21,752 bases of DNA from a virus (Duplodnaviria; Heunggongvirae; Uroviricota; Caudoviricetes). The stretch lies in the IMG/VR virus record IMGVR_UViG_2529292985_000022; one strand, given 5' to 3'. Made by a program: the position numbers. Positions within the stretch are counted from its first letter, which is position 1. Each line of letters opens with the position of its first letter. Below are positions 12,001-15,000 of the stretch, piece by piece.

Positions 12001-15000
12001 GGGGGCAAAGGGAGATACGGGAGCTGCAGGCCCGGCAGGCGCACAGGGGCCAAAAGGTGACAAAGGCGATCCGGGAGTGGCTGGACCAGCAGGTCCGGCA
12101 GGTGCGCCGGGGCCGAAAGGCGATAAAGGTGATCCGGGAGTAGCAGGTCCAGCAGGTCCGGCGGGGCCACAGGGACCGAAGGGAGACATAGGAGCCTCCG
12201 GGCAAGGAACAGAACTGCTTACTACTGCCAATACATGGACTCAGGCACAAACTTTTAATGGTGGTATTAATGGCAATTTGACGGTGACCGGAAACGGCTC
12301 ATTTAACGATATTCAGATCCGTTCGGATAAACGCAACAAGCGAAATCTGGTAAAACTGGATAATGCGTTAGATCGTCTGGAGGCACTTACTGGTTATCTT
12401 TACGAGATACAGTACTCTGCCGACGGTTGGCAAACGTCGGTTGGTTTAATTGCTCAGGATGCACAAAAAGCATTGCCTGAACTGGTAACTGAAGACGCAG
12501 ACGTTATATCTGGTGAAAAACGTCTGCGTCTTAACTACAACGGCATAATTGCATTGTTAGTCGAGGGCTTTAAAACACTTCGTCATGAGATTAAAGAACT
12601 CCGGGAGAAGTAAACGACAGCTGTTGTAGTTTCTGGTTTCTACTGAATTTAAATTGTGGGGTGACACTCACCCCACGCATTCAGAAGGGGGAGATGAGAT
12701 GGGGGTAACATCGGGATGGGTAGGCTCTTCGGCTAAGAGCGAAACAGGTGAGCAGTGGATGGGAGCCGCCGGAACCAAACTGGGACTGAGTAAACCTTTT
12801 ATGATGAGCCAAATGGTTGGGCGAACTATGGGCTGTAAAATTGCAACTGAGTACTATAAATGGAAATCCTCTGACAAGGTTGATAACTGGGGCGCAGTTG
12901 GCGCTGACTGGCCTTTAGAAGAAAAAAGTAAAGGTACAATTACAAACGCCGCAAGCTGCGGATCAGGGAGGCTGGTAGGGGCTGTCGTTACACTTTCTCA
13001 CTTTTTGACGAACTCTACACCGACAGCTGCTGTTTATTTAGCCGGTGGTAAAGCAGGTAACATCACCGTAAACGTAGGTGGTGCTACACAAACCATGATT
13101 TATCAGGGCGTTGTTAGTGGGTTCCAGTATTACTGGTCAGGTTCTGTTAGTTCCGCTTTCGTGGAGGCAATGAAAAAGACGGGAGTACCCCAGGATCTAA
13201 AAATTAGTTAAATGGTAAATAAATAATTTTAAAAACTTCACGTTCTACATACCGGAGACGCCGGATATATAGGATATTGTTTTAAGTTGCCAGAGAAATT
13301 TTTCCGGACGGATGCTGATAATAATGATGTGCCAATGACGGCAGCATCATGGATGGCACTGAGTGAAGCGACAGAGCAGGCGATGTTTGCGAAGGGAGTG
13401 GAGATTAATACACGGCAGTTGCAGATGAAAGCCGAGGTTGAGGCGCTGACAGACCTGAAGGCGATCCGCAGTTATGTTGTCGGATGGCCTGCTGTCTGAA
13501 TAAAAAAACGGGACCACGACCAGTCCCGGAACCATGAGTTTTAGGGTATTAGTTTGTTATCATAGTTAGCGTGCTAAGTATGCCATGTCAGGTTGATTAG
13601 TGAAGTGATGTTGTTCGCATTTTTGCACGGCGGAGAATATTCAGATTTTTGGAAATCCATATTTTTCCCGTGCGCGATTACATGCTTCATTTACGATGCT
13701 ATTTTCGCCGGACATTGCGAATTCCCTGCATGTGGACGGTTTTTGTAAACAGAGCAATATGCGTTTTCTCCGGGGGGGGCCGGCAAGAGCGCCACATCGG
13801 GGATTTTTCTGATTGGTGCCGCGCATACAGCGATGAAAAGGAGATATTTGCTCAGTGAGACTGACCGAAACCTTTCCGCCAGCATCGTCAGCTTCTGCCC
13901 AGTAAAAAGAGACGCGGAAAATGCACAACAGGCACCACACGTCATGCATGGATTCAGATTGCTCATAATTCACCAGTACAGCTATAAATCGTAAAGAGAA
14001 CAGCGGTACATCGTATGTAAGAACGTACCGCGGCTGGCTGGTGAACTTCCGATAGTGCGAGTATTGAATGATTTCCATCCGTTACAGATTTTACGTGCTA
14101 ATTAGTGAACAAACCACTCGTCAGCAGACTCCCAGGTATCTTTCAGAGTTTCCTGAACAAAAGTTTTAGCTGAATCTTTATCGGCGGTGCGCGTAACAGA
14201 AAGGCCATCGTTGCTGGTAGCTTTTACGATCACCTCTACATCGTCATAACGTTTACTGATGCGTCGGGTTAATTCTTCCTTTAACGCATCCACAGCACCG
14301 GTTGGCATTTTAGTCATTTTTTCTTTGGCTATGCAGATTTCAATACGCATAAAAGTCCCTCTACACTGTGTTTGTATACAGTATCAATTTTAACTGTATG
14401 GATAAACAGTATCAAGGGTGAAGGAAAGTGATTTTTTGGGGCATGCATGGGGCAAAAATATTTGTTGTGGGGCATTTTGGGGCATGATTGGGACACTTTG
14501 TTACATATGAACTTTGCCGATTTTTATATGACATGGAAATACAACGCTTTGATTCTTCTAAATAAAAAACATGCTCTTGGGCGTTCTTTAGTGATTTTTA
14601 AAAATTCCGTATCACGCAGTTAAAGTGGCGGGCATACTCTTCAAGGCTGGTGATCCCCAACCGCACCCATTTAGGATGCGACCATTGCGGTAGACCGATG
14701 TAAATCATAACGCGTGAAGGATCTCTTCCACGCTACGCACACGGGCGATGCGCGGGTAGATATGATTAATGCTGTTATTGTGTTGCTCGGCGCTGGCGGC
14801 ACTACAGGCGTCTTCGGCAATCACCAGATTAAAGCCAAGTTCCCAGGCATTGCGGGCGGTGGATTCAACACCGATATTGGTCGAGATCCCACATAACACT
14901 ATTGTATCGATACCTCGGCGGCGCAGTTGCAACTCCAGATCCGTACCGTAAAACGCACCCCACTGACGTTTGATGATTTCGATATCACTGTCAGTTGCAC

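Follow-up and report, generated by a model that had tools for sequence, protein, structure and literature searches.

The site-specific recombination systems closest to the locus analysed here are those of phage lambda, the Rac prophage of E. coli K-12, the lambdoid prophages inserted at yecE, among them Shiga toxin (Stx) phages, and the Stx2 phages 933W and VT2-Sakai, inserted at wrbA. The arm-type motif of lambda is C/AAGTCACTAT, and the P2 site of lambda attP is inverted. The lambda arm-type sites P1, P2 and P'1-P'3 are those of Ross & Landy 1982 (cited in PMC2951348). For Rac, the excisionase XisR was tested on two large fragments only, and arm sites were not described (PMC4632033). The 21-bp attachment site (att) of the yecE phages has been defined experimentally (Nakamura et al. 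2021, PMC8112680; records LC5678xx), and that paper makes no mention of arm-type sites. Here we analyse a 21,752-bp stretch of viral DNA (IMG/VR record IMGVR_UViG_2529292985_000022; hereafter the window) that holds the right end of a lambda-like prophage inserted in yecE. Five copies of the heptamer TGGGRCA near the junction are candidate arm-type sites of the prophage integrase (Int), a reading to which we give a probability of about 80%.

The integrase gene (int), the excisionase (Xis) gene and the P' arm lie outside the window and were taken from two proxies, strain 100416 and phage PhiR49_2. The resulting system resembles lambda Int and attP in its heterobivalent tyrosine integrase (here predicted from the proxies), in a short motif that is repeated in both arms and unrelated to the core, in the distances from the core (tandem P' copies at ~55-85 bp and P copies at ~100-180 bp), and, if the candidate integration host factor (IHF) site is genuine, in a bending site between arm and core. 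It differs from lambda in the motif itself, in the Pfam arm-binding domain, which is Arm-DNA-bind_2 and not the lambda type, and in the orientation of the copies, all of which point one way. Also unlike lambda, the P arm carries two to five copies among relatives and the P' pair is embedded in the coding sequence of int.

The likeness to Rac extends to the domain composition of the integrase (Arm-DNA-bind_2 with Phage_integrase), to a DUF1233 excisionase and to insertion into the 5' part of a gene, which in Rac is ttcA (PMC4632033). Rac IntR is 43% identical to the proxy integrase, and GGGGCA copies are laid out in the same way, with two just past the intR stop codon and three in the attR arm. 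The two systems differ in core and target, and the motif variant in Rac is (A/T/G)GGGGCA. The yecE prophages of PMC8112680 share the insertion site and the core, have an integrase 76% identical, and also have a dinI-like gene as the last gene before attR. In contrast to the window, their P arm is unrelated beyond ~40 bp from the core and holds two motif copies only, and they carry stx and/or nleC, neither of which is seen in the part of the prophage covered by the window. The integrases of 933W and VT2-Sakai are 67-68% identical to the proxy integrase (77% in the N-terminal domain), and the GCTCTTGGACGATCTT block is conserved. VT2-Sakai differs in its core and attB, which lie in wrbA, and in having no annotated dinI beside its arm.

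The attR junction in yecE

The minus-strand yecE reading frame begins at an ATG at 14708, is intact for codons 1-32 (14708..14613) and then continues into phage DNA, as an earlier note on this sequence had claimed. Translation of 14708..14559 gives 32 YecE residues followed by IRNF* (fusion …NCV-IRNF*), where uninterrupted YecE reads on as ...NCVEGNTTLYAL. When 14330-15040 was used as a megablast query against 5426 complete E. coli genomes, the match to intact yecE-yecD began at window position 14613 (query position 284) in every genome with an uninterrupted yecE-yecD. This start of homology falls within the interval of about 14600..14615 in which the earlier note had placed the junction. Comparison of the attL of strain 100416 with the window attR and with attB yields a common core of attL, attR and attB, flanked by imperfect homology. 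The core falls within the 21-bp att given in PMC8112680, which also bears out the claim that yecE is a documented integration locus of lambdoid and Stx phages. The two features at the junction are:

14613..14623, no strand assigned: core CACGCAGTTAA, common to attR, attL and attB, inside which strand exchange has to take place
14613..14708, minus strand: yecE' (codons 1-32, fused to phage sequence), from translation and the match to intact yecE

To the right, yecD-aspS-nudB-yebC-ruvC follow in native chromosomal order, contiguous with the yecE fragment. The left side carries tail genes of lambda-like type (tape measure, L, I, J, lom, tail fibre and a gp38-like adhesin) and then a dinI-like gene. 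Thus yecE is broken at the documented att, with native chromosome on one side and phage late and tail genes on the other. Because the flanking genes keep their native order, the junction at 14613 is the true chromosomal attR and not a phage-borne copy or a displaced fragment. The insertion site and the core are already documented, and the junction itself is routine.

Five phased TGGGRCA repeats in the P arm

The P arm of this attR holds the following copies of the motif, all on the plus strand:

14437..14443, plus strand: candidate arm-type site copy 1, TGGGGCA, outermost of the P-arm array; kept in P-EibC, TUM10008, 100416, PhiR49_2 and the phi80/mEp237 fossil (see below)
14448..14454, plus strand: candidate arm-type site copy 2, TGGGGCA, 11 bp from copy 1; TGGGACA in P-EibC and CGGGGCA in TUM10008
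14468..14474, plus strand: candidate arm-type site copy 3, TGGGGCA; missing, as a 10-bp indel of one unit, from the phi80/mEp237 fossil
14478..14484, plus strand: candidate arm-type site copy 4, TGGGGCA, first half of a pair found in all relatives
14489..14495, plus strand: candidate arm-type site copy 5, the variant TGGGACA, 11 bp from copy 4

The spacings between successive copies are 11, 20, 10 and 11 bp, so all five copies face the same side of the helix. The earlier note had described five same-orientation copies of TGGGGCA; their number, strand and phasing stand, and the sequence needs correction for the fifth copy. The array spans -177 to -118 bp relative to the core, its last copy ending 117 bp from it, and no further copy with one mismatch occurs within 14351-14720. 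Neither the core nor the flanking 21-bp att contains TGGGRCA, and the motif is unrelated to the core-type sequence.

Both strands of the window together give 11 matches to the motif against 7.8 expected. Five copies within 59 bp on one strand were compared with 2000 sequences simulated under a first-order Markov model, in which no more than three same-strand copies ever fell within 65 bp, and three did so only once; a Poisson estimate for a five-copy cluster is ~4e-9. The clustering of the five copies is far from chance.

The same motif lies across the core in the proxies. Strain 100416 is 99.2% identical to the window over 14330-15040, and at its other prophage end has the remainder of yecE, a 437-amino acid tyrosine integrase and a 78-amino acid excisionase. 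PhiR49_2, a deposited phage genome with host given as ECOR13, has an integrase identical to that of 100416 and an arm 99.3% identical to the window. Both carry int and xis at the left end of the prophage, and no stx is annotated in the 100416 prophage. Their P' arm contains TGGGGCA-N4-TGGGACA, the form also taken by copies 4 and 5 of the window, at +65 to +82 bp from the core and within the 3' end of int (L003:9904/9915 and L010:78/89). A pair is kept at the int 3' end in 80 of 80 IMG/VR loci whose integrase is at least 90% identical. The IMG/VR integrase scan returned only relatives at or above this identity; most of these loci end with the stop codon of int, and they added neither further P arms nor diversity.

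Two observations concern the left end in these relatives. One 93-kb IMG/VR record (IMGVR_UViG_2850796239_000011, locus L077) encodes an integrase 95% identical and has the P' pair, with non-yecE sequence past the core; it may represent a secondary attachment site, perhaps within another prophage as in PMC8112680. At the attL of 100416 (L003:9106-9876), the Prokaryotic Genome Annotation Pipeline (PGAP) calls the 3' part of yecE a complete DUF72 protein of 256 amino acids; its ATT start codon lies in phage DNA and overlaps the last part of int. Restoration of yecE at this attL is doubtful.

The motif follows the integrase N-terminal domain

The repeats are also present in both arms of the related phages Stx1_14040, YYZ-2008 and VT2-Sakai. 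Identities below are to the proxy integrase.

Window with proxies 100416 and PhiR49_2 (integrase and P' arm from the proxies): target yecE; integrase is the reference; 5 P copies; 2 P' copies
Stx1_14040: target yecE; integrase 76% identical; 2 P copies; 2 P' copies
YYZ-2008: target next to yehU/btsS (yehV site); integrase 72% identical; 3 P copies; 2 P' copies
VT2-Sakai: target wrbA; integrase 67-68% identical; 4 P copies (TGGGGCA, spacings 11, 20 and 11 bp); 2 P' copies

In all four phages the copies have one orientation and matching distances from the core. A k-mer comparison identified TGGGGCA as the sole 7-mer found in both arms of all four lineages. The P arm of Stx1_14040 is unrelated in sequence to that of the window beyond ~40 bp from the core. 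Copy 4 of the window has its counterpart in the P-arm pair of Stx1_14040 (L005:1409/1420) and in the inner copies of YYZ-2008 and VT2-Sakai. The P-arm copy number, two to five among relatives, apparently changes by gain or loss of 10-11-bp units; copy 3 corresponds to an exact 10-bp indel relative to the phi80/mEp237 fossil.

More distant integrases carry altered versions of the motif. In PHB10 (integrase 44% identical) it reads TAGGGGCA, with two copies just past the int stop codon and three further out. The motif is unchanged among the yecE, yehV and wrbA phages, whose N-terminal domains are 77-86% identical, and is altered (TAGGGGCA or AGGGGCA) in PHB10 and Rac, where this domain is ~45% identical. 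It follows the N-terminal domain of the integrase and not the chromosomal target.

One other account of the motif was considered and set aside. The P' pair encodes part of the integrase C-terminus (peptide VPxMPH) and might have reflected coding constraint; this is rejected because PHB10 and Rac have their P' pairs beyond the coding frame, and the same motif is present in the P arm, which is non-coding. The arm sites of KplE1 IntS were also compared; they contain TAAA and are unrelated.

The integrase domains point the same way. The proxy integrase has a Pfam Arm-DNA-bind_2 domain (PF12167) at residues 7-70 (E = 1e-23), which is also present in the integrases of Stx1_14040 and PHB10 and in Rac IntR. 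Identity is highest in this N-terminal domain (86/86/77%) and lowest in the putative core-binding region (70/64/61%), the pattern to be expected if arm specificity is shared and core specificity differs. A sequence search of the PDB with the integrase matched only catalytic and core-binding regions of other recombinases and yielded no structure for the N-terminal domain. By analogy with lambda, the minimal arrangement of two plus two sites in Stx1_14040 would fit a tetramer of N-terminal domains. We infer that Int binds the motif, and the roles of single copies and the use of IHF and Xis are likewise inferred.

Other candidate sites in the arm and a proposed model of the complex

Several further features lie between the last phage gene and the core:

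14542..14554, minus strand: exact IHF consensus WATCAANNNNTTR (AATCAAAGCGTTG), between the array and the core; candidate bending site
14570..14598, no strand assigned: core-proximal block CATGCTCTTGGGCGTTCTTTAGTGATTTT, 29 bp, invariant in seven relatives
14102..14350, minus strand: dinI-like gene, the last phage gene before attR (Pfam DinI, E = 1e-19; annotated as DinI-like in the proxies)
14364-14383 and 14392-14411, no strand assigned: two LexA-box-like sequences (CTGT-N8-ACAG) in the promoter region of the dinI-like gene, read from the sequence

The IHF consensus at 14542-14554 is the sole exact match in the 21.7-kb window on either strand, and a scan of the other lineages for this consensus gave no exact match; its role as an IHF bending site is only suggestive. 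The centre of the core-proximal block, GCTCYTGGRCGWTCTT, is conserved in the yehV and wrbA phages too, and the block holds a pair of TCTT(N)G units at a spacing of 11 bp. The excisionase or another accessory protein may bind here, and the block is well suited as a candidate for such a site. Two short repeats were also observed in this region: AGTGATTTTT occurs at 14427-14436, directly before copy 1, and again at 14590-14599, just before the core, and CATATGA/TATATGA recurs at ~14512 and ~14534.

Window positions 14437-14623 are the phage-side (P) arm and core of the attR site of a lambda-like prophage. We propose that this prophage integrated at yecE codon 32/33 by means of a Rac/933W-type tyrosine integrase, acting with a DUF1233 excisionase. 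The integrase of this system would combine the Pfam Arm-DNA-bind_2 domain with a catalytic domain. Its small N-terminal domain would bind the five head-to-tail TGGGRCA copies of the P arm, two further copies, beyond the window in the 3' end of int, being predicted to serve as P' sites, and its catalytic and core-binding domains would bind the core at 14613-14623. Int protomers would in this way bridge arm and core sites across bent DNA, the bending probably being aided by IHF at 14542-14554 and by an accessory factor on the block at 14570-14598. The assembled complex would perform integration and, with Xis, excision.

The second LexA-box-like sequence lies ~25 bp from copy 1, and in the phi80 record a predicted LexA site is annotated at the corresponding position upstream of the dinI-family gene dinL. 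It is conceivable, if rather improbable, that the P array is tunable, with outermost copies that in the dinI-adjacent lineages abut LexA operators, so that LexA occupancy and Int arm binding interact and copy number sets the balance of integration and excision. If true, the excision complex would assemble in direct response to SOS status, or dinI expression would depend on Int binding.

Alternative explanations for the repeats

Several points weigh against the arm-type reading. The integrase, xis and the P' arm are known from proxy genomes only. All lineages examined inherit the excisionase together with Int, and covariation alone cannot separate the two. The fossil arm of phi80 and mEp237 keeps four intact copies despite the phi80 integrase being of another type, so intact copies are no proof of current use; in the window prophage, which is interrupted by IS66 and by a stop within the gpJ frame, the arm sites may be idle. 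Near the annotated attP of phiCTX, whose integrase is 30% identical, there is no TGGGRCA cluster, and the range of the motif does not extend that far. In the literature on the arm-type sites of yecE, wrbA and 933W phages, we found no paper that defines them for this integrase family.

A head-to-tail array with 10-11 bp phasing in an attR arm is typical of excisionases. The repeats could accordingly be sites for the DUF1233 recombination directionality factor, coated and bent for excision as with lambda Xis, L5 gp36 and P2 Cox, and such an excisionase lies beside the integrase in every motif-bearing lineage. The array of the window has just this arrangement, but in every lineage a pair of the same motif is also found in the P' arm next to int, so the copies are not confined to one arm, and lambda-type Xis has no sites in the P' arm. 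The motif is invariant even though the excisionases are only 46% identical, against 77-86% for the Int N-terminal domains. Binding data from Rac bear on the same question: XisR shifted a 294-bp AttR fragment and not a 291-bp AttM fragment (PMC4632033). When we mapped the published primers, AttM (L101:1169-1459) proved to include the whole Rac array (1316-1352) and to end one base before the 26-bp core, and AttR (L101:1290-1583) to add the core and the host side. Since AttM contains the complete array and yet was not shifted, the array is not sufficient for XisR binding, as judged indirectly from a single gel-shift in a relative whose integrase is 43% identical. The earlier note had left the choice between integrase and excisionase open; the presence of the motif in both arms upholds the former and the Rac gel-shift weakens the latter. 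Int is the more likely binder of the repeats, and an excisionase array is improbable.

The neighbouring gene suggests another role, in which the repeats would be operator or activator sites of the SOS-controlled dinI-like gene, unrelated to recombination. The dinI-like promoter is divergently placed, and the array begins ~25 bp past its second LexA-box-like sequence; a dinI-like gene also adjoins the array in Stx1_14040, YYZ-2008, phi80 and mEp237. VT2-Sakai, however, has its four-copy array at the same distance from the core with no annotated dinI between its last annotated gene, H0160, and attR, and the Rac array has no annotated dinI gene within ~1.4 kb of attR, which argues against a part of the repeats in dinI regulation. 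Copies are likewise present at the int end, which is tens of kilobases away from dinI, and the array keeps its distance to the core (-118 to -177 bp), not to the neighbouring gene. We regard this explanation as very improbable. Inheritance without function is also to be weighed: the repeats may be arm-type sites by descent that are now an inert relic in a decayed prophage that may have lost its integrase, like the phi80 fossil, since in phi80 and mEp237 the arm persists without its integrase. Signs of decay are ISEc49 next to the tape-measure gene at 1026, the in-frame TGA of gpJ at 8196-8198, and an IS110-family element that splits the neighbouring yecD. Set against these, the window retains an intact core and conserved block together with all five copies, and the deposited phage genome PhiR49_2 has an arm 99% identical to its own. 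We consider a relic unlikely and retain the reading as integrase arm-type sites. Such sites seem not to have been described before for the Rac/933W-type integrase family, which includes Shiga toxin phages.

Signs of prophage decay and a fossil junction in phi80

The IS66 element that the earlier note had recognized at the left edge is confirmed: window positions 1-1026 match the terminal part of ISEc49, a member of the IS66 family known from CFT073 and ATCC 25922, at 100% identity. The element ends next to the segment immediately upstream of the tape-measure gene, which means that the tail assembly genes upstream are interrupted or lost. The stop codon in gpJ (6849-10322) splits the gene into frames of 449 and 707 amino acids, where relatives have one intact gene of ~1158 amino acids. 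The window prophage is probably defective.

Further insertion sequences (IS) lie on the chromosomal side. A 1448-bp IS110-family insertion at 15054-16501 (398-amino acid DEDD transposase, minus strand) splits yecD, with no target duplication evident against intact yecD. Chromosomal homology ends after ruvC, and the last segment (20838-21752) contains an IS1 transposase frame (20853-21284) and an IS3-family frame with an rve domain (21259-21681). With four IS families in 21.7 kb, the source strain is likely IS-rich. Between the tail-fibre adhesin and dinI-like genes, a minus-strand frame of 145 amino acids (13641-14078) had no match in Pfam or PHROGs; in relatives this position holds cargo such as nleC.

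Phages phi80 (JX871397 ~23227-23532; L002:2935-3240) and mEp237 (L099) carry a fossil of this attR downstream of a dinI-family gene. Four TGGGRCA copies are followed in it by the conserved block, the core and yecE codons 1 to ~32, at ~87% identity to the window. The integrase of phi80 itself is of the Arm-DNA-bind_3 type, and the phi80 record annotates the fossil only as a 'DUF72 N-terminal fragment pseudogene'. The fossil looks like what an aberrant excision from yecE would leave behind once the integration module had been replaced.

Implications for Rac/933W-type integrases

Integrases of the Rac/933W type mobilise many Shiga toxin and effector prophages at yecE, wrbA, yehV and ttcA. They appear to share one arm motif, (T/A)GGGRCA, in a fixed layout with two copies beside int and two to five copies 120-180 bp across the core. 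The architecture is a textbook one and leaves the view of how such systems work unchanged. A motif shared across Stx-phage and Rac-type integrases is nonetheless a clean, testable prediction, and the signature would help to define exact prophage ends, to recognize fossil junctions such as that of phi80, and to design minimal attP substrates and mutants for studying the integration and excision of Stx phages.

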